From IMG/VR virus record IMGVR_UViG_3300026484_000088: DNA of 20,000 bases. One strand, given 5' to 3'. The notes under the pieces are model-generated. The model saw only the letters and a program-made list of their open reading frames with translations. It made no database searches and had not been told where the DNA came from. The stretch is from an uncultured virus (IMG/VR IMGVR_UViG_3300026484_000088). Lineage: Duplodnaviria > Heunggongvirae > Uroviricota > Caudoviricetes. Shown here one piece after another: positions 3,998-18,593 of the stretch. Within the stretch, counting starts at the first letter, position 1. The number at the start of each line of letters is the position of its first letter. The position numbers and the translations under genes were made by a program.

Positions 3998-5148
3998 ATG
4001 AAACATGAGTATGAATTTAAAAACTTACTAAATAAAGTAAAATCTAATTTTATAGTAATAGATTTAGAGACATTAGGTGTTAGAGCAGAAAACGCTAAAA
4101 TATATAGTATATCTATTACTTCTGTAATAGATAAAAATACTATTACATTCTTATATAAACCTTGGATGAAAGATCAATTAAAAGAATTTTTAAAAGATAA
4201 ACATATTGTATTTCATAATGCATTATTTGATCTAAAAATTCTAATTACTAATTTATTTATGAATAGTAATAGAGATTTAGGTGGAATGAGAGATGGTATT
4301 ATCTTTCTCAAAGAAAATGTAAAAATAGATGATACTATGCTTATGATATATCATTGTAACAATAATACTCAAGGCAACGAATTAAGTTTAAAATTTAATG
4401 CTTTAAAATATACAGGTGTGTATGCTATTGATGTAACTGATATAGCTGAAGCTTTAGATAAAGGAATACTTAATGAAAAACAGATACTAGAATATAATGC
4501 TATAGATACTATAGCTACTGTATTATTATATGAAGAATATTTACCAAAGATAAAGGAAGAAGATGTAAGATTAATATATAGTAAAAGTATTGAATCTATT
4601 TATTATTTAATTGAAACTATGATAGTTGGTTTACCATTAGATAAATATAGATTATTAGAGGTAGAAAAGCAGTTAAAAGATGAATTAGATATATTAAATA
4701 ATACTTTAAAATTTTATATAGATGATTCATTCAATCCTGGTTCAAGTAAACAATTAAGTAAATTACTTTATGAAGTATTTGATTTACCTATTTTAGAAAA
4801 AACAGAATCAGGACAACCAGCTACAGGTGGAGATATTTTAAAGACACTTTTAAATTATACTGATGATCCAGATAAACAAAAAGTACTTACTTCTATAAAA
4901 GATTGGAAAGATGTTCAGAAAATACTTACTGGATTTATCGAACCATTTAAGAAATATTATTTTAGTAGGAGTAATACTTACTGGCTCACAGGTAATCAGA
5001 GGCTTGGAGGAACAAAATCAGGTAGATTAAGTAGTAATGAACCTAATTTAGCTAATTTACCTTCTAACAGTAAATACGGTAAGTTAATTAAGAGTATTTT
5101 TCAAGCACCAGATGGTTGGTTATTCTGTGGATCAGATTTTGCAGCCCT
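3998..5148 (+). CDS. DNA polymerase family A, exon 1 (3'-5' exonuclease, thumb, start of motif A)
   Basis: ExoI DLET, ExoII FHNALFDL, ExoIII YNAID, GTKSGRLSSNEPNLANLP, motif A SDFAAL cut by the intron. Confidence 0.95.
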
Positions 5149-5257
5149 TAACATATCGGGGGTCCTAAATAGAAATATTTAGGTAATAATGGTATCTAAT
5201 TCAGGGAAAGCTAAGTCGTAAGATATGCTAATCCTGAGCCAAGACTTAAATTCCTTA

Positions 5258-5286
5258 TTGACTTCTATCCTTTTTTAGTATATAAT
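5258..5286 (+). promoter_or_regulatory. Sigma70-type promoter inside the intron driving the homing endonuclease
   Basis: TTGACT (5258-5263), 17 nt, TATAAT (5281-5286); AAGGA SD before ATG 5320. Confidence 0.8.
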
Positions 5287-5319
5287 CATAATTGATTACA
5301 CTAATACAAAGGATAGATA

Positions 5320-5862
5320 ATGATAGAAAAGTTAATTAATGGTTATAATGGTATATATAAAATAGATGATAAAGGTAATGTATATACTAAATATAAACCT
5401 AAAACAGGTAAAATATGGGATAAATGGACTAAATTAAAATGGGTTTTAGATAAACATATTGGTTATTATTTAGTTACATTAGTGCATCCAATAACTAAAA
5501 AAAGAACTAATAAGTTTATTCATAGACTTTTAATGGAATCTTTTGTTCCTAATCCAGATCCTAAAAAATATAAGCATGTAAATCATATTGATGGTAATAA
5601 AGAAAACAATCAATTAAATAATCTTGAATGGGTAACCCCAAAAGAAAATACAAGACATGCTATTAAATTAGGTTTAAATAAACCAGGTGAAGCAAGTAAA
5701 AAAGCTATAAAACAAATAGACTTAAATACTGGTGATGTTATTGCTGAATTTGAATCAGCAAGAGAAGCAAATAGACTTACTGGAATTGCTCACCAAAATA
5801 TTAGTAAAGTTTTACGAGGTTTACGAAAACATGCTGGAGGATATTTTTGGGAATTTAAGTAA
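5320..5862 (+). CDS. Intron-encoded HNH homing endonuclease (NUMOD4-HNH-NUMOD1, I-HmuI-like architecture)
   Basis: IHRL, HVNHIDGNKENNQLNNLEWVTPKENTRHA, C-terminal FESAREANRLTG HTH; looped out of stem ACTTAAATTCC/GGAATTTAAGT. Confidence 0.93.
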   Translation: MIEKLINGYNGIYKIDDKGNVYTKYKPKTGKIWDKWTKLKWVLDKHIGYYLVTLVHPITKKRTNKFIHRLLMESFVPNPDPKKYKHVNHIDGNKENNQLNNLEWVTPKENTRHAIKLGLNKPGEASKKAIKQIDLNTGDVIAEFESAREANRLTGIAHQNISKVLRGLRKHAGGYFWEFK

Positions 5863-6014
5863 GGTGCAGAGACTATCTCCGTACGGAGAGTAGGGAAGTA
5901 AGTGATTGACTTCTCGAAACGGTACCTATCTTAACAGGTAAAGCTGAAGATAAAGATATAGTCCGACACTCCAAGAAATTGGAGAGACAGAGTAGCGTCT
6001 GTCGTAACTGATTG

Positions 6015-6825
6015 CGAAGATCGTATAGTTGCTAACTTAAGTAATGATCCTATGAAAATAGGTGTATTTACTAAAGGTATTGATGGACATAGTCTAAATG
6101 CAGCAGGTTACTTTAAAGAAGAATTAGAATCTCGTGGAATATTTATAGATATGAATGATCCAGAGAGTATAAATTCTGTAAAGAAATTAGCTAAAGATTT
6201 AAGACAAGAAAGTAAGACATATACCTTTGGAATGAATTACGGTCAAGAAGCTCCTGGAATGGCTAAAAGTCAAGGTATTCCATTAGAAAAAGCAGAGAAA
6301 ATAGTAGAAGGTTATAAAAATACTTATAGAGTAATGATTGAATGGAATGAAAGTAATAAAAAATTTATGAATGAAAATGGATATGTTAGAGGTTGTTGGG
6401 GACATAAAATTAAAACACCTTTAATAAAAATGTCTATTATTAATTCAAGAATTACTCCATCAAATATAAAAGCTGAATTTAGAACAGCCAATAATGCTAT
6501 TACTCAAAGTTATGGAATACTTACTACTATTGCTGGTTCAAGGTTTCAAGATTTATTAGAGAAATCACCATATAAATATGATGTATTTTTAATAAATCAA
6601 ATTCATGATGCTATATATTTATTAGTTAAAAATGATCCAGAAGTAGTAAAATGGGTTAATAATAATTTAATAAATACTATGTGTATGATGGATGAACCAA
6701 GATTAATAGATGCTCCTGTAAAATTAGAAGCAGAATTAGATATTGGAAAATCTTGGGATAAACAAGTAACTCTAAAAAATAATATTTCTATTAAAGAAAT
6801 AGAAAAACAATTAAACACTTTTTAA
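6015..6825 (+). CDS. DNA polymerase family A, exon 2 (spliced product 653 aa)
   Basis: EDRIVA completes motif A; motif B RQESKTYTFGMNYG; motif C QIHDAIY. Confidence 0.95.
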
Positions 6826-6834
6826 GAGTGTTTA
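6812..6834 (+). terminator. Hairpin over the DNA polymerase stop codon, possible terminator
   Basis: TAAACACT (6812-6819) / AGTGTTTA (6827-6834); only a weak U tract follows. Confidence 0.45.
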
Positions 6835-6849
6835 TTAAAGTTATATTTA

Positions 6850-6858
6850 TGGTATAAT
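6850..6858 (+). promoter_or_regulatory. Extended -10 promoter TGnTATAAT without a canonical -35
   Basis: TGGTATAAT with AT-rich upstream sequence. Confidence 0.65.
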
Positions 6859-6864
6859 TTTAAT

Positions 6865-7021
6865 AAGCATTCATTTGAATGTTTAAATCTCCCTTGTAGA
6901 AAAAAACTATTCATTTTATTAAGTGATACATTGCTTCTTTTTTGAGACTTAAAAAAATTCATATAAACAATTCCTCCTATTATTTATATTTTACAAACTA
7001 CAAGGGAGAATTCTCTTTTTT
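6865..7021 (+). ncRNA. Candidate structured small RNA
   Basis: Promoter, 5' hairpin 6865-6884, perfect 12-bp inverted repeat 6888-6899/6998-7009, anti-SD TTCCTCCT, terminator-like hairpin with U run 7002-7021. Confidence 0.6.
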
Positions 7022-7043
7022 AAATTACACACAAAGGAAAAAC

Positions 7044-7415
7044 ATGAATGTAGAGATAAGAAATAACTATCTATATATAAATGGTGAACTAATTAAAAGA
7101 GTAACTTCAAATTCACTTTCTCATCAAGTAATAAATTATATGATAGAAAGAGATTTTCATTTTACATCTTTAAAAATGTTTGCTGATTTATATGATTTAG
7201 AAACAGATTCAATGATACATGTAACTATTTATCAAATAAATAAAGAAACACAGAGACTATTTGGAGAAAAGTTTATACTGACATCAAAGAAAGGTATCTA
7301 TTATCCTAATCCCTGGTTCAAGACACAGAAAGAGACTATATATAAAGTAAAAATTCCTAAATCAATAGAAAAAGAATTTTTAGAAAAATATAGTCAATAT
7401 ATTATAAAAGACTAA
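7044..7415 (+). CDS. OmpR/PhoB-type winged-helix DNA-binding domain protein without receiver domain
   Basis: AAGGA before ATG 7044 (preferred to TTG 6942); SMIHVTIYQINKE…FILTSKKGIYY matches recognition helix plus wing pattern. Confidence 0.6.
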   Translation: MNVEIRNNYLYINGELIKRVTSNSLSHQVINYMIERDFHFTSLKMFADLYDLETDSMIHVTIYQINKETQRLFGEKFILTSKKGIYYPNPWFKTQKETIYKVKIPKSIEKEFLEKYSQYIIKD

Positions 7416-7417
7416 AC

Positions 7418-7897
7418 ATGAATAAAATAATTTGTTTCGATATAGATGATTGTATATTACCTCACTATAATATGCTACCTAAAAAGCATAGATTACAAAT
7501 CTTTAAGCTAAATCTTGAGAGATTAGTTCATTTATGCCAACAAACAGGAGCTAAACTGTTTATGACGTCTAGTTGGGGAATGATATTAAAACTTGATAAT
7601 GGTTACCTGACTTTTAAAGATGAATTTGATTATGGTGATGAGTTTGAACAAGAAGTTGTTGAAATTATGAACTCTTATTTGCAGCCTTACATAATAGGTG
7701 TTAGTTGTGGTGATAGAAGAGAAGATATTAAAATCCTATTACTACAAGAAAATACTCTTATTGTAGCTATAGATGATATGGATTTGTCTGATATTGAAAG
7801 GGATAATTTTAAGTATATTAAGGTTGAAACTATGATAACAGATAGACAATTAAGATATATTAAAAAAAATTTAAACAAAATTATCATAAAGGATTAA
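7418..7897 (+). CDS. HAD-superfamily phosphatase (HAD_SAK_2-like)
   Basis: Motif I CFDIDDCI, motif II MTSSW, motif IV AIDDMDL. Confidence 0.8.
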   Translation: MNKIICFDIDDCILPHYNMLPKKHRLQIFKLNLERLVHLCQQTGAKLFMTSSWGMILKLDNGYLTFKDEFDYGDEFEQEVVEIMNSYLQPYIIGVSCGDRREDIKILLLQENTLIVAIDDMDLSDIERDNFKYIKVETMITDRQLRYIKKNLNKIIIKD

Positions 7898-7898
7898 T

Positions 7899-8564
7899 AT
7901 GAATGAATGTAAAGATTGTAAATACTTTGAACCAAGTCAGAATATGTATGGAGATGGTTATTGCCATAATACAGAATGGTTATTTAATGAACCACCTGTA
8001 TATAAAGATTTTGGTTGTATTAAATTTAAACAAAAAGGAAAAGAAATGGAAAAACAAGAAATGATTAACAAATTGAGAGATATAGCTGATTCTATGGAAG
8101 AAAATGATTATTTATGTCATTCAGAAAATTTAAAACAAATTGCAGATGAATTACAAGTAACACCAAATCCTATTCAAGATATAGTTGAGTTAAATGAAAA
8201 AAGATATGGTTTAATTTTTAATTCTGAAAAAGCAATTGAAAAACTAGAAGAAGAGTTACAAGAATTTAAAGATGCAGTAAAAGATAATAATGAACATGAG
8301 ATGTTAGATGCTTTAACTGATATTAGAGTAATTGCTATTGGTGAGATTAGAAAAATGGGATATGATCCAGAGTGTACATTAAATGAAACAGTAAAAGAAA
8401 TTAGTTCAAGAAAACAAGATCCAGCACAAAAACATAGATGGGAAAGACTATTTAAAAAACAACCAGGAGAGAAATGGTTAAAAGATAAAAATCAAAGTCC
8501 AGATACTTTATATAAAGCAGATTTTAATAAATGTAAAATTGGAAATACTAATGAAAATAATTAA
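7899..8564 (+). CDS. MazG-like all-alpha NTP pyrophosphohydrolase with N-terminal Cys-rich module
   Basis: EEELQEF…EMLDALTD metal-binding pattern; CKDC…C…C N-terminus; internal SD/ATG at 8046. Confidence 0.75.
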   Translation: MNECKDCKYFEPSQNMYGDGYCHNTEWLFNEPPVYKDFGCIKFKQKGKEMEKQEMINKLRDIADSMEENDYLCHSENLKQIADELQVTPNPIQDIVELNEKRYGLIFNSEKAIEKLEEELQEFKDAVKDNNEHEMLDALTDIRVIAIGEIRKMGYDPECTLNETVKEISSRKQDPAQKHRWERLFKKQPGEKWLKDKNQSPDTLYKADFNKCKIGNTNENN

Positions 8565-8814
8565 ATGTATTAGAAAACCAATAGAATTAAAAGCTTTAGA
8601 AGTTACAAAGGCTGAATTGAAAGATTTGTTAAAGAACGGTCCAATAACAATATCAGAAGCAGATGCAGAATGGATAGCAATTGAATGTGGAGAAGATGAA
8701 ATTATTGGTTATATTGTGGGAGATATAGATAAAACTAAATCTGATTTAAAATTTATAGATAAAAAGAATTTTATGGAAGATATAGAGAAATATGAAGTAG
8801 TTAAGGAGGTGTAA
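8551..8814 (+). CDS. Hypothetical protein
   Basis: ATG 8551 after GGA; TAATG coupling to next gene. Confidence 0.7.
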   Translation: MKIIKCIRKPIELKALEVTKAELKDLLKNGPITISEADAEWIAIECGEDEIIGYIVGDIDKTKSDLKFIDKKNFMEDIEKYEVVKEV

Positions 8815-9119
8815 TGAATAAAAAATATATAGAAAAGTTAGATTATCCTTTAAATGCAGATAATCATACATTAAGTTTCTTATTTGAGAAAGTAACAGGT
8901 GGTTATAAATGTTTAGTAATTGAAACATATTACTATTCATATAGTGGTAAATTTAGTTATAGAGGACCTAAAGCTATTTATGGGGTTGAATTTATGACAA
9001 TGAGTGATCCAGAAAAAATTGAAATTAAACTAAGAGATTATAATATAAATACATTATATAAAAAATATAAGGAAAAAGATTATAAATTCTTTGAGGATAT
9101 TTTTAAAATGGAGGTGTAA
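8814..9119 (+). CDS. Hypothetical protein
   Basis: AAGGAGGT SD, overlapping stop/start. Confidence 0.75.
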   Translation: MNKKYIEKLDYPLNADNHTLSFLFEKVTGGYKCLVIETYYYSYSGKFSYRGPKAIYGVEFMTMSDPEKIEIKLRDYNINTLYKKYKEKDYKFFEDIFKMEV

Positions 9120-9411: not shown

Positions 9412-9632
9412 TGGAAATAAATGAATTATTACAGAAAATTAATAAAGCAGACTATGAAGGTCTTGAAAAAGTAATTATTTCTGTATCAGATTTAATGACA
9501 TTAAGAAGAGCTGTTATTGATATGCAAAAGAAAATAGACGGATTAGAAACTAAGTTAAGCTATACTGAAACGAAATATAACGTTTTAGTTAGTAAACATT
9601 TAAGATCTTATAAAGAATTAACAGAAATTTAA
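9408..9632 (+). CDS. Small coiled-coil hypothetical protein
   Basis: ATGA overlap; heptad-like C-terminal half. Confidence 0.7.
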   Translation: MMEINELLQKINKADYEGLEKVIISVSDLMTLRRAVIDMQKKIDGLETKLSYTETKYNVLVSKHLRSYKELTEI

Positions 9633-9642
9633 AGGAATTATT

Positions 9643-10182
9643 ATGCCTAATTGGTGTGGAAATACAATGACCATTACAGGAGAACCAGATAAAGTAAATA
9701 AGTTTATTGAAGATTTTACAAAAGAAGGATTTGCTTGTGTAGGAGATTATCCTAATATAGCAGATGAAAATGATACTGGTTGGTATGAGTGGAGAATAGC
9801 AAATTGGTCGACTAAATGGAATTTAAGTAAAGATGATATAGAGATATTACAAAATAATCCAGGCATATTTAGTGTATTTTTTTATACAGCTTGGAGAGAT
9901 CCAGAAGGATTTATTAAAAAAGCAAGTAATATATATGGAATAACTATAGAAAATAGATTTGAAGAACCTGGTATGTGTTTTTATGGTTATTATAAAGTAA
10001 TTAAAGGTATTATCAAAGAAAATTATATTATAGAGGATAGTGATTTTAAAAAACCACCAAAAGTATTAAAAAAAGTATTTGGTAGTATAGAACAAGTATA
10101 TGAATACTTTGATACTTTATTTGAAGAAGATATGACAGAAGAAATTAGAGATACAAGAAAATATTTGAAAGGATTATTATGA
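9643..10182 (+). CDS. YubB/DUF1281-like ferredoxin-fold protein
   Basis: MPNWCGN start, WYEWRIANWSTKW, FYTAW, FEEPGMCFYG signature. Confidence 0.8.
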   Translation: MPNWCGNTMTITGEPDKVNKFIEDFTKEGFACVGDYPNIADENDTGWYEWRIANWSTKWNLSKDDIEILQNNPGIFSVFFYTAWRDPEGFIKKASNIYGITIENRFEEPGMCFYGYYKVIKGIIKENYIIEDSDFKKPPKVLKKVFGSIEQVYEYFDTLFEEDMTEEIRDTRKYLKGLL

Positions 10183-10769
10183 TATTATTTAGAAAAGAAG
10201 CAAAAAAAATATTAAGAGAGCATGGGTTTAGTGAAGACTTTACAGTTAATAAAATAGATAGACATATATGGTTAGTCGGTAAATGTGGTAAACAAATAGT
10301 ACAAATAAGTGATTTAGAAGTAGGTAATAAATTAAGTAAAGCTGAGAGAGAATTACTTATTGAGGATTATTTATACCCTAATATAATTATGAAAAAAGTT
10401 AAAATTGATAGATTATTATCTATAGAACAAGCAATAGAAAATATTGATATAGAATTAGCTGGTATAGAAAAAAAAGATCAAGTATATATTGATACAGATT
10501 ATAATTATGCAAAGGCACGAAATATAGGATACATTGTTTCACAAGTTAGTGAAAAAGATAAGTATGTAGCTAAATTAAAAGAAAATTTAGATACACATGA
10601 AAGACATATAATTATGAATAATGTACCTCAAGAAGACACTTGCAATATATATAATAAATTACTTGGTAAATTACCTATTAGAACTAGAGTGTTTAATTTA
10701 TATACTGAAAAATTAAAATTAAAAAATAATATTTTAAAAATTAAAAAAGAGTTAAAAATAGTATGTTAA
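10179..10769 (+). CDS. Hypothetical protein
   Basis: 196-aa ORF, SD AAGGA, ATGA overlap. Confidence 0.75.
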   Translation: MILFRKEAKKILREHGFSEDFTVNKIDRHIWLVGKCGKQIVQISDLEVGNKLSKAERELLIEDYLYPNIIMKKVKIDRLLSIEQAIENIDIELAGIEKKDQVYIDTDYNYAKARNIGYIVSQVSEKDKYVAKLKENLDTHERHIIMNNVPQEDTCNIYNKLLGKLPIRTRVFNLYTEKLKLKNNILKIKKELKIVC

Positions 10770-11875: not shown

Positions 11876-12229
11876 ATGTTAAATTTATCAAGTAAAGTAG
11901 AATTACTTAACGATAACTTAAATAAAATATTTAATTTAGAAATAATTAAAAAATTAAAACAAGCAAGTATTTCAGAACCAGAAGAAGAATTAGATTTAAA
12001 TCGTGGAATGTTTATGTATAAAGTAGAAATTAAACATAGATTATTTATACAAATTGTATTTGATTTATTAAATATAAATGATTTATATCATATTAAATTA
12101 GAATTCATAGATGAAAATTATGGGTTTGATAAATATAGTATAAATATACACGAATGTATTACTAAAGATATAGTTAAATGTGCTTTAGAATTACATAAAA
12201 CTATATTAAATTTATTAAATAAAAAATGA
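11876..12229 (+). CDS. Hypothetical protein
   Basis: 117-aa ORF with AAGGA SD. Confidence 0.7.
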   Translation: MLNLSSKVELLNDNLNKIFNLEIIKKLKQASISEPEEELDLNRGMFMYKVEIKHRLFIQIVFDLLNINDLYHIKLEFIDENYGFDKYSINIHECITKDIVKCALELHKTILNLLNKK

Positions 12230-12249: not shown

Positions 12250-12687
12250 ATGAGAGAAATTAAATTTAGAATATTTGATAAAGAAGCAAAAAAGATGCTC
12301 ACTGATGGCATCTGTTTTGGATTTGGTATGAATGGGTATTATATCTTAGACTCTGATAATAGAGTTTTAAAAGGTAATATTACTTGGGTATATGGGAAGA
12401 ATTTTGTGAACATTTCTTTAGATAACTTCGTTGTTATGCGATACACAGGATTAAAAGATAAAAATGGTAAAGAAATTTATGAGGATGATCTCATTAACTA
12501 TGAAGATAATGAGCATTATGGGATTGTTACTTTTAAAAAAGGAGCATTTGGAGTAAATTATTACAATTTCGATGCGTCAGATTGCCCTTTATTTTACACT
12601 TTTTATGAACTTATACATAATAAAAAAAAGTTGTTGGTAGCAGGCAATATTTATGAGCATTCTACATTAATAAAAAAGGAAAAATAA
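12250..12687 (+). CDS. YopX family protein
   Basis: MREIKFRIFDK, YTGLKDKNGKEIYEDD, VAGNIYE; start probably 12250. Confidence 0.9.
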   Translation: MREIKFRIFDKEAKKMLTDGICFGFGMNGYYILDSDNRVLKGNITWVYGKNFVNISLDNFVVMRYTGLKDKNGKEIYEDDLINYEDNEHYGIVTFKKGAFGVNYYNFDASDCPLFYTFYELIHNKKKLLVAGNIYEHSTLIKKEK

Positions 12688-12968
12688 TGAGTGATAGTTT
12701 AGATAGAATCTCTGAACCAGTAAAGAATATAAAAAGTAGTAAATACTTATATAACGTTAAACCTTGTCATTTTAGTAATTTAACTTACAAAGGTGCTTTA
12801 AGAGAAAAAATTAGATTAGGTAAATTATTATTAAGAGAATTAAATGAAAAATCATTTAACTTATCTGGTTCAGAATATATGAATAATGAAGTTAGGTTAT
12901 TAAAAGTTGCTGATGCTATTGAATTTAATAAATTTTTATTAAATGAGTTAGATAATTGTAAGGATTAA
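12687..12968 (+). CDS. Hypothetical protein
   Basis: TAATG coupling, AAGGA SD. Confidence 0.7.
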   Translation: MSDSLDRISEPVKNIKSSKYLYNVKPCHFSNLTYKGALREKIRLGKLLLRELNEKSFNLSGSEYMNNEVRLLKVADAIEFNKFLLNELDNCKD

Positions 12969-12971
12969 ATA

Positions 12972-13583
12972 ATGGCTAGAAAAAAAACTAAACAAGAAAA
13001 ATTGTTTAAGAATGAAAAATATAAAAAAGATTTAGTTTATTTATATTTAATTTATGCTTATTTAGATATAGGTTTAAGAGAAGAAGAATGGGTAATATCT
13101 AATAAGTTTGGAGTAAATGTTATAAATGAATTAAAGTTAAAAAATCATTCAGAAAAAACTCAATTAGATATAAAGAAATTATATGCTACTACTAAAAGGA
13201 TATTTAAGTATTTAATGCAAGAAGGTGTATTTAACAATAAAAAAATTAAAGGTGATCTAATTATTAAACTTGCTGAAATTGAGATAAATAAAGCTTTTAG
13301 TGGTTATAAAGATTGTTCTATTATACCTATTTATTTAGGAATATTATTACTTATTTCTTGGCAAGAAGATGTTAAATATAAATCATTTAATATGTCATTA
13401 GATTATAATTATTTAGCTGATATAACACTTGCTATTGAAGAAGAACATCAAGAATTAAAAGAAATATTAGATAGAAGTGCTGATATAGTATATCATTTTT
13501 ATAAAAATATATATGGTGAGTATTCTTGGTTCAAAGAATCAGGTAATGTAGATTTAAAAGAATTATTTGGTAAAAAGGATTAA
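12972..13583 (+). CDS. Hypothetical helical protein
   Basis: 203-aa ORF with AAGGA SD. Confidence 0.75.
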   Translation: MARKKTKQEKLFKNEKYKKDLVYLYLIYAYLDIGLREEEWVISNKFGVNVINELKLKNHSEKTQLDIKKLYATTKRIFKYLMQEGVFNNKKIKGDLIIKLAEIEINKAFSGYKDCSIIPIYLGILLLISWQEDVKYKSFNMSLDYNYLADITLAIEEEHQELKEILDRSADIVYHFYKNIYGEYSWFKESGNVDLKELFGKKD

Positions 13584-15136: not shown

Positions 15137-16495
15137 ATGGCTTCTAATTATTATAAAAAAGAAACTGAAGAGGATTGGATGATACTTAAAAGAGAATTTT
15201 TAGAAAAGGGAGAAAAAATGACAGAATATAAAATGACAAAGGAAGAAACAAAAGTAGGTGTTACTTTATATAATAATAAATTAACAGTTTATGGTTATAT
15301 ACATTCACAATTAATAGATAAAATGGGTAATCCTTTTAGTACTGATTTATTAGATACTTCTGTATCAGCAAGTGAAGTATTTATTATAGATTCTACTGAT
15401 AATCATATTAAACCATTAACTTTAGATGAACTTGTTACATTAAATAATGAATTACAAAAAGTTAAATCTTTAACATATACAGAAAATATAACAGCACAAA
15501 TAAATACAAGCAAACAAGTTATTGCTCAAGCTTTAAAAGAAACACCTATAACTGACTATATAGATAAAACATCAATTGATAAAGAAAGTACAAAAATACA
15601 AGCACTATTTACTGAAATGAGAGAATATAAGAAATTATTAGACGAGTATTTAGAAGAATTAAAAAAAGGTGTAAGTGGAAATATAGAAGATTATTTAGAC
15701 ACTTATTTCTTTAAAGAACATTTAATGTTACTTGGAGAAAGAGGAGCCAGTAAAACTTATACTGTAACTAAATATTTAGCAGATAAAGGTATAGAGACTG
15801 AATTTATGGGATGTCATAATGCAGTAGAAGCTATTGATTTACTTGGTTATTATATTAAAGCTCATGACGGTTCATTTGTATGGTTAGATGGTGCTTTATC
15901 AGGAGCATTTAGAAAAGCTCAATCAGGTAAAAAAGTAGTATTATTTATGGATGAAATTTTAAGAATGCCTGCTAAAGAGTTAAATATTTTAGTTGCAGCA
16001 TTAACTCCAGATGCAGAAGGATATTTTAATTTAAGAACCAACAGAATTACAAATATTAATGACGGTATTGGAGAAGTAGAATTATTAAGGGTACCAAAAG
16101 ATATGTTATGGGTAATTGCTACTACTAATATTGGTGCAGATTATGATGTAGAAGAAATTGATGTAGCATTTCAAGATAGATTTATGTCTGTAGAAGTAGA
16201 ATTAAATGAAGATGTAATTAAAAGTATCTTATATAAATACACTGAAGATGAAATAATTGTTGATAAATTAATAAATGCTTATAATAAAGTAAATATGGCA
16301 GTAGAAGCACAAGAACTAGCAAATAAATTAAATGTAAGACATTTAGTTAAAGTTATTACTTATTCTGGTTCAGATGTTAATAAAATGAAAGAAATATTAT
16401 TACACTTTGCACCTAATATTTGTAGTAGAAATATAGATGGTAAATTAAATAAAATGGATATAGAAGTATATAAAGAGATAATTAAATCTCTTTAA
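15137..16495 (+). CDS. MoxR/CbbQ-like AAA+ ATPase
   Basis: Walker A-like GERGASKT, DLLG, WLDGAL, Walker B LFMDE, ATTN sensor 1, FQDRF arginine finger; alternative start 15218 with strong SD. Confidence 0.88.
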   Translation: MASNYYKKETEEDWMILKREFLEKGEKMTEYKMTKEETKVGVTLYNNKLTVYGYIHSQLIDKMGNPFSTDLLDTSVSASEVFIIDSTDNHIKPLTLDELVTLNNELQKVKSLTYTENITAQINTSKQVIAQALKETPITDYIDKTSIDKESTKIQALFTEMREYKKLLDEYLEELKKGVSGNIEDYLDTYFFKEHLMLLGERGASKTYTVTKYLADKGIETEFMGCHNAVEAIDLLGYYIKAHDGSFVWLDGALSGAFRKAQSGKKVVLFMDEILRMPAKELNILVAALTPDAEGYFNLRTNRITNINDGIGEVELLRVPKDMLWVIATTNIGADYDVEEIDVAFQDRFMSVEVELNEDVIKSILYKYTEDEIIVDKLINAYNKVNMAVEAQELANKLNVRHLVKVITYSGSDVNKMKEILLHFAPNICSRNIDGKLNKMDIEVYKEIIKSL

Positions 16496-16523
16496 TACTT
16501 TAACTTAAATGTAAAGGAAAAAG

Positions 16524-17051
16524 ATGAATAATTTAAACCTAAAAGAAATATTGAAATATAAACTAAAAAACATGAAATCATCATATTTTTGTTTAAAAAA
16601 TATTAAAATTATTTTTAAAGATAATAAAGCAATAGTAAAGTGTGAATTTGAAATGTATGGAATAAGACATTATGAAATTCCAAGTGAAGAAATGGACAAA
16701 GATCAAATGAGTTTAATTGAATTATTAAAAGGAAGCTTCAATAATGTTGAAACGGATTTATATGCTATTTCATTTGAAATACCAAATTATGAAGAATATA
16801 TTGAAAAAATTAAAAAAGATATTATTTTTACCTATTCTAAAAAATGGGCAATACAAATTATAAAGATAAATAACTCAAGTTATTATGACGAAGAAATAGG
16901 TATAGATCTTGAATTTATTAAAGATATTAAAATTGAAACTACAACTTTTGGTAATAAAGAAGAAGCAATTGTAAAATATCACTTATTAAAAAATAATTAT
17001 GAATCTTGGGATTATGTTGATATTAAACTTATAAAAGTTCTTGAAGAATAA
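16524..17051 (+). CDS. Hypothetical protein
   Basis: 175-aa ORF with AAGGA SD. Confidence 0.7.
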   Translation: MNNLNLKEILKYKLKNMKSSYFCLKNIKIIFKDNKAIVKCEFEMYGIRHYEIPSEEMDKDQMSLIELLKGSFNNVETDLYAISFEIPNYEEYIEKIKKDIIFTYSKKWAIQIIKINNSSYYDEEIGIDLEFIKDIKIETTTFGNKEEAIVKYHLLKNNYESWDYVDIKLIKVLEE

Positions 17052-17064
17052 TAAAGGATAAAAA

Positions 17065-17262
17065 ATGAAAATAGGTGATATTTATGTACATTATAAAAAT
17101 AATGAAGAATATATGATATTGGGGTTTCCAGCTTTTCAAGATAATAACACAGGAGAGTGGATACATAATGCTGTTGTTTTATATAGAAATAAGAAAAATG
17201 ATTTATTTATTAGATCTAAAATAGAATTTGAAGAAAAATTTATAAAAAAGGTAATATTATGA
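17065..17262 (+). CDS. DUF1653-like small protein
   Basis: YVHYK…Y…VVLY…LFIRSKIEFEEKF pattern. Confidence 0.7.
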   Translation: MKIGDIYVHYKNNEEYMILGFPAFQDNNTGEWIHNAVVLYRNKKNDLFIRSKIEFEEKFIKKVIL

Positions 17263-18593
17263 GTAATTTAACCAAAGAAGAAATAAATAAATTAGCTAGT
17301 AGAAAATTTAAATCAGAAATATTTAAAAAGATTATTTCTGGTTCAAGACTTTTAAAAGAAAGTCTAAATTCAGCAAGTGATATTTTTATTTCAAATAAAG
17401 ATACTACAGTAATAAAACCGTCTAAAGATGAAAAATATATAAGAATAAATAAAGAAGATTTATTTAGACCTGATTTTTCAGAGTACTTTGAATGGTTATT
17501 AGCTATGGATCCAGAAAAGATTATAAATCAAATACAGCAAGATATTCTATTAAAAGATGGATTAAATTTAGATATTACTGATGAAATATCAGATTTATTT
17601 AAAAGTATTCAAGAGAAACACAAAATATTATCCTCTACTGAAATAGAAGAAGAAGTAGAAGAAATTAAAAAAGAGATTGCTGAAGGTTCTTGTGAAATGT
17701 CTGGAAGTCATGGTTTTAGTAAAAGTGAAAGTAGATCAGCTAAAGAAATATCAAAGGAATTAACTAAAGTTATTGATTCGAAAAAAGAATCTTTAGAAGA
17801 TAAAGGTTTAAAGTCTGATGAAATAATTGAACCAGATATAGAAGCAGCTATGAAACAAGCACAAGAAATAGATTCTTATAAAGATATAAAAGATTTATCT
17901 AAACCTTATTTAAATAAACCTATATTATCTTTAAATGATATAAAATATCTAAATAAATTAAAACATAAAATGTTAAAAGCATTTAAAGGAACAAAAGGTA
18001 AATCTCCTTCTTATTCTCCAAGTAAAAGAATAAATATAAAAAAAGATATTGTAGATAAAGATAATATCTATATAAAAACTACTGTATCAGAAGGTAAATA
18101 TTTAGAAATGAATATAATTATTGATATGTCTGGTTCTATGAGTGGTAAGCCTATTGGATATGCTAATAGTATTTTATATTTATTTAACGAATTAGCAAGA
18201 GACGGTTATTTTAAAGGAGATGTTATCTTTACTTCTGACTCAAAACCATATAAAACTACACTTCCAATTGATAGATATAAGGTATTTAATTTATGTGGAG
18301 CAAGAGGTGGATCAGAAGGTTTTAAAAATACTGTACTTCAATATAAAAATGAATTAAAGAATTCTAATGTTATTGCTATAACAGATGGACATATTACGGA
18401 TAAACCTATTTCTCATAATTTATGGGATAAAATAAGAGTAAAATCATTAGGTATATATGTAAATCCTAATAAGGATGAATTAGTAAGAAGTAGAAAACAT
18501 TTAACTAAATACTTTCATCATGGTATAGCAGTACCTAATTTAGATGAACTAGTTAATTATTTAGTTAAGGTAGGTTTAAAAGGTAGAAAGTAA
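17259..18593 (+). CDS. vWA-domain protein, likely partner of the AAA ATPase
   Basis: MIDAS DMSGS and ITDG, preceded by a charged low-complexity linker. Confidence 0.85.
   Translation: MSNLTKEEINKLASRKFKSEIFKKIISGSRLLKESLNSASDIFISNKDTTVIKPSKDEKYIRINKEDLFRPDFSEYFEWLLAMDPEKIINQIQQDILLKDGLNLDITDEISDLFKSIQEKHKILSSTEIEEEVEEIKKEIAEGSCEMSGSHGFSKSESRSAKEISKELTKVIDSKKESLEDKGLKSDEIIEPDIEAAMKQAQEIDSYKDIKDLSKPYLNKPILSLNDIKYLNKLKHKMLKAFKGTKGKSPSYSPSKRINIKKDIVDKDNIYIKTTVSEGKYLEMNIIIDMSGSMSGKPIGYANSILYLFNELARDGYFKGDVIFTSDSKPYKTTLPIDRYKVFNLCGARGGSEGFKNTVLQYKNELKNSNVIAITDGHITDKPISHNLWDKIRVKSLGIYVNPNKDELVRSRKHLTKYFHHGIAVPNLDELVNYLVKVGLKGRK

Follow-up and report, generated by a model that had tools for sequence, protein, structure and literature searches.

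On the stretch of DNA analysed here (the window, 20,000 nucleotides from an uncultured virus), Pfam and PHROG indicate genes for an N4-type RNA polymerase in split form, for a family A DNA polymerase with an HNH gene inserted in it, for an N4-type exonuclease, and for a primase. The exonuclease has 477 relatives in deposited phage records, every one below 60% identity. The runs that contain the window stretch and have a stated habitat are hydrothermal vent metagenomes (three of seven rows), and for an SLT-like protein encoded at 10763, the closest atlas clusters are mostly Campylobacterota (score 0.96-0.97). The AAAGGA ribosome sites and -35-less promoters of this phage are also, we presume, consistent with Campylobacterota. 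The window phage is an N4-like vent phage, and its host is thus probably from this phylum. One Schitoviridae vOTU has been linked to Sulfurimonas (PMC11531552). Elsewhere in the window, a promoter region with extended -10 sites on both strands (1935-1985), also kept in the relative G001, lies before a RepL-like ORF (2003; Pfam RepL at 19.1 bits, below the cut-off). An AAA ATPase and a VWA-like ORF form a MoxR/VWA-like pair at 15137-18593, where we take an IDMSGSM motif to be the mark of the VWA protein.

The element under study lies between the 3' part of the phage DNA polymerase gene (6052-6825, + strand; Pfam DNA_pol_A, E 2e-20; PHROG DNA polymerase) and a 123-aa ORF of unassigned family (7044-7415, + strand). 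An insert (5183-6051) that carries the HNH gene (5320-5862) and was not flagged by Rfam interrupts the polymerase gene; among relatives, the polymerase gene is unbroken in L003 (799 aa), has two Rfam group I intron matches in L006, and holds another insert, with a 268-aa ORF, in L007. A phage near-identical to the window (L025) contains, at 326-1315 and 7059-8885, a primase gene divided by an insert that bears an HNH-like ORF, along with a 608-aa ThyX-like ORF with an apparent intein-like stretch, all three of these labels being our own presumptive reading.

A preliminary description, made from the sequence of the window, had placed a stand-alone structured small RNA at 6850-7021, and the element is real. 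The cassette to which it belongs begins with a hairpin over the polymerase stop codon (6813-6833, + strand; -8.0, z -2.95), likely a weak terminator or 3' stabiliser, of which 8 pairs are kept in all five sequences that carry the cassette, 4 of them varying on one side only. This hairpin was looked for at the empty site of L001 and is absent there. An extended -10 promoter motif, TG-N-TATAAT (TG-G-TATAAT in the window), follows at 6850-6858 (+ strand) and is kept in all five sequences, with G, A, or T as N; from its position, transcription would start near 6864-6866. The same promoter class precedes late-strand genes of G001. The promoter scan that was employed needs a -35 box and hence did not list this promoter.

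Downstream of the promoter is a 5' hairpin with an invariant G-U pair (6864-6885, + strand; -8.0 kcal/mol, z -5.2, 0 of 200 shuffles), whose loop is variable and in which one C-G to U-A change is found, in L004. It is followed by a long closing stem, formed by arms at 6888-6899 and 6998-7009 (both + strand) that make up a perfect 12-bp inverted repeat enclosing 98 nt. No other perfect repeat with a 40-260-nt loop in the window reaches 11 bp, and a 12-bp perfect repeat is present in 4.5% of 200 block-shuffled windows. The pair probability of the stem is 1.0 at both 37 and 55 C. As a whole, the 164 nt from 6862 to 7025 fold at -34 kcal/mol (z -5.18, 0 of 200 shuffles), compared to a z of -2.39, about half that value, for the opposite strand. 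At the 3' end, a hairpin at 7002-7019 plus two more U (7002-7021, + strand) shares the 3' arm of the stem. The preliminary description had read this hairpin as terminator-like; the shared arm was confirmed, but the hairpin is weak (-4.6 kcal/mol, z -1.14, with 29 of 200 shuffles equally good) and was not among the sites called by a terminator scan of 5500-8500, which numbered 0, leaving it as a candidate for a leaky terminator. The last part is the RBS (AAAGGA) and ATG of the next gene (7022-7046, + strand), which come with the cassette and are alike in all five sequences even though the next gene differs. Rfam, searched at E up to 1, returned no match to the element, either for the window or for its counterparts in L003, L004, L006, and L007. 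The promoter, the 5' hairpin, the 12-bp repeat, the shared-arm hairpin, and two CAT triplets at 6912 and 6929 were all found where the preliminary description had them.

A search with the polymerase returned one viral and six metagenome loci. L002 is identical to the window over the cassette, and L001 and L005 are one contig that lacks it, the polymerase stop in L001 overlapping the start of the homologue of the 7044 gene. The cassette is carried by L003, L004, L006, and L007, which, with the window, gives five distinct sequences. Among these, the frame (6826-6898) is 85-96% identical, compared to 34-74% for the loop, which is 92-147 nt long between the stem arms. Conservation of the inverted repeat in related phages had been suggested as a check, and a closing stem of 11-13 pairs is indeed present in all five sequences, with covariation: 4 of its 11 counted pairs have changed on both sides, although three of the both-sided stem changes are found in L004, where they may represent two paired insertions, in a set of five close sequences in all. 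Over the three helices, 135 of 135 cells are paired and 5 of 27 pairs have changed on both sides, a result matched by 0 of 500 shuffles in a test that is inflated by the relatedness of the sequences; slid controls were 34-56% paired and had no both-sided changes. RNAalifold on the five sequences found no conserved structure within the loop.

Public runs provided four further contigs, in four runs and possibly from the same phages as the loci already counted, that match the frame to 6898 and rejoin the window at 6987, 6996, 7025, or 7044, one of them with 160 other letters between 6898 and the rejoining point. Patterns made from the frame gave 0 matches and then 1 chance match, inside a coding gene, in viral contigs, and 0 in genome contigs. 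Model R1, run over 19 sources (243,048 bases), gave 6 matches, all at known loci, and none in G001, G010, or G012; a scan with the polymerase alignment added two distant loci at 22-23% identity. The alignments show a frame that is fixed and a loop that is exchanged, or drifts fast, between phages. The cassette is a real, undescribed phage RNA family, set apart by its exchangeable loop.

Whether this RNA serves the gene behind it can be judged from the same loci. Homologues of the 7044 protein (122-127 aa) begin at the same ATG, which places the start of the gene at ATG 7044 and not at TTG 6942, the case that the preliminary description had named as refuting a small RNA. That description had also called the 7044 product a winged-helix regulator, a label that finds no backing: the protein has no Pfam, PHROG, or NCBIfam match, only an atlas lead, and its low-confidence structure model (pLDDT 56.7) has no fold match at E 0.001. 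The homologue follows the cassette in the window, L006, and L007, but an unrelated gene takes its place in L003 and L004, two of the four cassette relatives, and in L001 the homologue stands without a cassette. The proposal of an attenuator for the 7044 gene is weakened accordingly, and a fixed link to one regulated gene is not seen. The cassette is thus independent of the downstream gene. The term stand-alone goes too far, as the downstream operon seems to be served by this promoter as well, judging from the weakness of the 3' hairpin and the new RBS that follows it.

A broader version of the same idea is that the cassette is a 5' leader setting read-through into the downstream replication operon, in which the long stem would compete with the 3' hairpin as an antiterminator and the loop would be a spacer or a sensor of another RNA. 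The shared 3' arm has two possible partners in four of the five sequences (at -4.6 to -7.7), the cassette comes with its own promoter and RBS, and G001 has a similar stem-closed loop ahead of its first late genes. However, the terminator is far weaker than the long stem at equilibrium, where the stem wins with a probability of 1.0 (-13.8 to -17.4 versus -1.2 to -7.7 for the 3' hairpin over the five sequences), and a leader would be expected neither with the changes in the next gene nor with the L001 homologue, which needs none. A leader also leaves unexplained the antisense modules of the loop, the second of which pairs weakly with its own next RBS (-5.8 to -10.9). We consider a leader an unlikely, if the best surviving, alternative.

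The loop has a pyrimidine content of 0.55, compared to 0.41 for the window, which places it in the top 1.5% of 98-nt windows. The pyrimidine-rich + strand of the preliminary description is therefore there, but is less unusual than was claimed, as two other intergenic stretches reach 0.51 and 0.55; the telling feature is the base bias, with C at 0.13 and G at 0.05 versus 0.09 and 0.16 in the window. Two antisense modules can be recognized in it. Module 1 (6908-6941, + strand; unpaired probability 0.64) contains the CATs at 6912 and 6929 and a degenerate anti-SD, CUUCU, at 6934-6938, where L006 and L007 have CUCCU; it is the weaker start mimic because its SD-to-ATG gap is only 2 nt. Module 2 (6950-6979, + strand; unpaired probability 0.82) contains an anti-AUG at 6960-6962 and the anti-SD UUCCUCCU at 6971-6978, so that the AGGAGG-N10-ATG noted earlier is present when the minus strand is read. 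It is the strongest antisense SD and ATG of 183 in the window and has a 12-nt word in common with L007 and with G001b, a candidate RNA of G001 described below. A further anti-start proposed at 6871-6896 is not a module, because it lies within the 5' hairpin and the stem and its CAT is kept in none of the four relatives. At two key places, C has changed to U (module 1 of the window and the anti-AUG of module 2 in L006), and both changes would retain pairing through G-U.

Each of the five loops carries two C/U-rich anti-SD-like motifs with unpaired probabilities of 0.59-0.99, the motif set having been picked after the sequences had been seen. When antisense ATGs were ranked by SD strength, taken as pairing of the upstream bases to the 16S tail, those of the modules took first place among 183 in the window and among 66 in L003, second among 61 in L006, first and second among 64 in L007, and fourth among 32 in L004. 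Against dinucleotide shuffles, a strict module count was significant in L007 (p 0.005) and G001b (0.0015) only, and not in the window (1 module, p 0.148), L003, L006, or L004. Two CTCCT per loop were found in L003 (p 0.0005), L006 (p 0.0005), and L007 (p 0.0025), and one in the window (p 0.058); the L004 loop lacks CTCCT and yields no strict module. An unpaired C/U-rich stretch that can pair with an SD and a start codon is present in the cassette loops, more weakly in L004, and an anti-SD is tied to CAT at start-like spacing, with A-rich second codons, in the window, L003, L004, L007, and G001.

G001 (L011), which is cassette-less at its polymerase, has three promoter-led candidates around tRNA-Asn, Tyr, Met, and Gln that read as antisense starts. 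The first is at 12129-12211; the middle one (12595-12900, G001b) has a called terminator; and the third (12925-13050) is closed by the sole 11-bp repeat in the 36 kb of G001, with a fold z of only -1.74. The middle candidate has words of 13, 11, and 10 nt in common with the L007 loop, the 13 plus 11 being reached by 0 of 300 shuffles, and one 12-nt word in common with the window loop, which 10 of 300 shuffles also attain. When the shared module was searched for as a pattern, 22 viral loci were hit, one being G001 itself and none recognizably related. Given that model R1 gives no match on these candidates, they suggest the same kind of cargo in different frames. Two other features of G001 were noted: a GC-richer, ORF-poor stretch of about 700 nt in the early region (9490-10190, minus strand), a candidate large non-coding RNA with no Rfam match at gathering level, and a promoter-led tiny Lys/Arg-rich ORF at the late-strand start (12003-12068, + strand), possibly a protamine-like peptide.

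Pairing with translation starts, another check that had been suggested, was searched on the phage side in the window, 11 kb of its 98%-identical continuation (G010), and G001, a set from which part of the late region of the window phage is missing, and gave no clear match. In agreement with the earlier statement that the window holds no long match to a gene start, no complement of at least 13 nt to the loop lay on a phage gene start in this set apart from G010. The best site for module 2 of the window among 6,217 windows is the start of gene 9121 (-20.7; next -16.8). A coding site in G001 reaches -20.3, close to this value, and the pairing is not beyond SD-and-ATG-preserving shuffles (0.083). 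The 9121 start was rejected as a conserved target, the modules of L006 and L007 preferring the site of the window (-20.9 versus -15.7 at its own orthologue for L006, -25.3 versus -13.3 for L007), and own-versus-cross matrices for the next gene and the 9121 orthologues, built from partial genomes, showed no diagonal. At RNA polymerase starts, the window modules rank only in the top 20-44%. G001b with its own RNAP1 start is the best of 4,353 windows (-28.6; next -27.5) and module 2 of L003 with its own RNAP2 start is second in its locus (-20.9); these own-pair signals are not repeated in the window and are close to noise.

An SD at least as strong as -8 kcal/mol precedes only 7 of the 33 starts in the window (median -5.7). 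The SD mirrored by module 2 is one of -10.2, which hints slightly at something other than typical phage genes. Against phages and plasmids, blastn yielded nothing but short matches (E 1e-4 or weaker) and no coherent target, and a protein scan of genome contigs for the host gave one locus, in a Gracilibacteria bin, whose kin are of the wrong phylum. For putative targets, we tentatively place host genes somewhat ahead of phage genes.

It could instead be that the loop is a decoy that mimics a C/U-rich ligand, such as the 3' tail of 16S rRNA, and soaks up a host protein or nuclease, or that binds strong SD sites unspecifically. A short CCU/CUCCU core is all that is common to all loops, and the phage-side searches found no specific target. 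A decoy would not, however, account for the coupling of anti-SD and CAT at start-like spacing with A-rich second codons, and the longer words common to L007 and G001b suggest particular mRNAs, making this reading rather improbable. More improbable still is the lack of any RNA function, with the inverted repeats as protein-binding or recombination sites in DNA, or as a decayed element, flanking captured remnants of gene starts. Loop exchange does occur right at the stem, and DNA hairpins are used in promoters of N4-like phages (PMC9163698). The invariant G-U pair and the one-sided G-U changes in the hairpins argue for RNA instead, as do the conserved promoter pointing into the cassette and the single orientation of the loop in all five sequences. 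Least probable of all is a cis-antisense RNA to a minus-strand micro-gene, as in type I toxin-antitoxin systems: a 46-aa ORF with a strong SD does begin at 6962 (6822-6962, minus strand), but its length and sequence are not kept (46 aa versus 16, 7, and 16 aa in L003, L004, and L007, and no ATG in L006), its peptide is not hydrophobic and has no Pfam or PHROG match, and the window list has no minus-strand extended -10 site nearby. We judge that it is not a gene; no conserved small hydrophobic ORF lies opposite the RNA, and the lack of conservation of the minus-strand frames read from module 2 implies that the modules are not genes of their own.

On balance, we lean toward the cassette being a trans-acting phage small RNA that blocks ribosome-binding sites, its targets being putative. 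Of the original proposal of a phage sRNA silencing several mRNAs, the sRNA is upheld by the covarying frame, the exposed anti-SD in all five sequences, and the independence from the downstream gene, and what falls short is the silenced mRNAs. In such a mechanism, host RNA polymerase would start at the extended -10 promoter and the 5' hairpin would form; part of the transcripts would end near 7021 at the weak hairpin and U run, and others would enter the operon. After this partial termination, the RNA would refold, the freed molecule of about 155 nt probably closing into the 12-bp terminal stem, a structure backed by covariation. The stem would hold open a loop of about 100 nt with the two modules seen in the sequence, each an anti-SD with or near an anti-AUG. 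By analogy with c4 and CJnc190, these modules would pair with translation starts of other mRNAs and exclude the 30S subunit.

The closest parallel is c4 of phages P1 and P7, a phage RNA closed by a terminal stem, with two antisense modules of which one covers an RBS, and with variable antisense parts that set specificity in a fixed frame (PMC5320573). As described there, c4 is about 77 nt long, has three stem-loops and an RNase P cut at a GGW site, acts in lysogeny immunity, and blocks ribosome entry through loops a' and b' (PMC5320573). The cassette, in contrast, is about 155 nt long, with its 5' hairpin outside the stem and a nearly unstructured loop of 92-147 nt, in a lytic N4-like phage. 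Membership in c4 was rejected: there is no Rfam match, the consensus is a 5' hairpin and one closing stem with no conserved inner hairpins, the 5' arm begins UCUCCC in all five sequences with no GGW RNase P site, and no nearby phage mRNA sites co-vary with the loops (next gene and 9121 orthologues, in partial genomes). The cassette would work like c4 while lacking the c4 membership features that were tested.

In its mode of pairing, it resembles CJnc190 of Campylobacter jejuni and RepG of Helicobacter pylori, in which a single-stranded C/U-rich loop pairs with a G-rich RBS and start codon, and which come from the same phylum as the probable host of the window phage (PMC8687705). A promoter of its own and a defined 3' end would belong to this mode; in the cassette the promoter motif is conserved and the 3' hairpin is weak. 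Unlike the cassette, both RNAs are chromosomal and, in the account of PMC8687705, have one validated target and loops that are not exchanged between strains, and CJnc190 is processed by RNase III from long precursors and has a cis antagonist (PMC8687705). By description only, the cassette can also be likened to the late intergenic sRNAs of the N4-like phage LUZ7, which are abundant, shorter than 250 nt, and have alternative 3' ends; the late stage that yields them is run by host RNA polymerase (PMC9163698). The passages on these sRNAs in PMC9163698 assign no function and, unlike the cassette, describe no anti-SD modules.

A bolder and doubtful extension is that the cassette is a reprogrammable antisense weapon, in which reverse copies of host starts are swapped into the fixed frame so that each lineage would shut down two host genes of its own, such as defence genes, at the step of ribosome binding, with relatives carrying small module-sharing arrays. 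Fast change of an antisense loop within a fixed frame, in a lytic phage, would amount to RNA-level arms-race evolution, and the loops would point to host genes that matter to the phage; the frame might also serve as a protein-free knock-down scaffold for Campylobacterota. Mechanisms have been established for only a few phage sRNAs, and the examples considered here from PMC12197685 are from temperate phages. None of the titles and opening abstracts covered describes such an RNA in N4-like or Campylobacterota phages; a table of 38 sRNAs that accompanies PMC12197685 may bear on novelty. Another intergenic small-RNA candidate, at 4194-4410 in G010 (L025), combines perfect TTGACA and TATAAT promoter boxes with a hairpin at its 5' end and a further, long hairpin, and folds at -56.7 kcal/mol across 231 nt.
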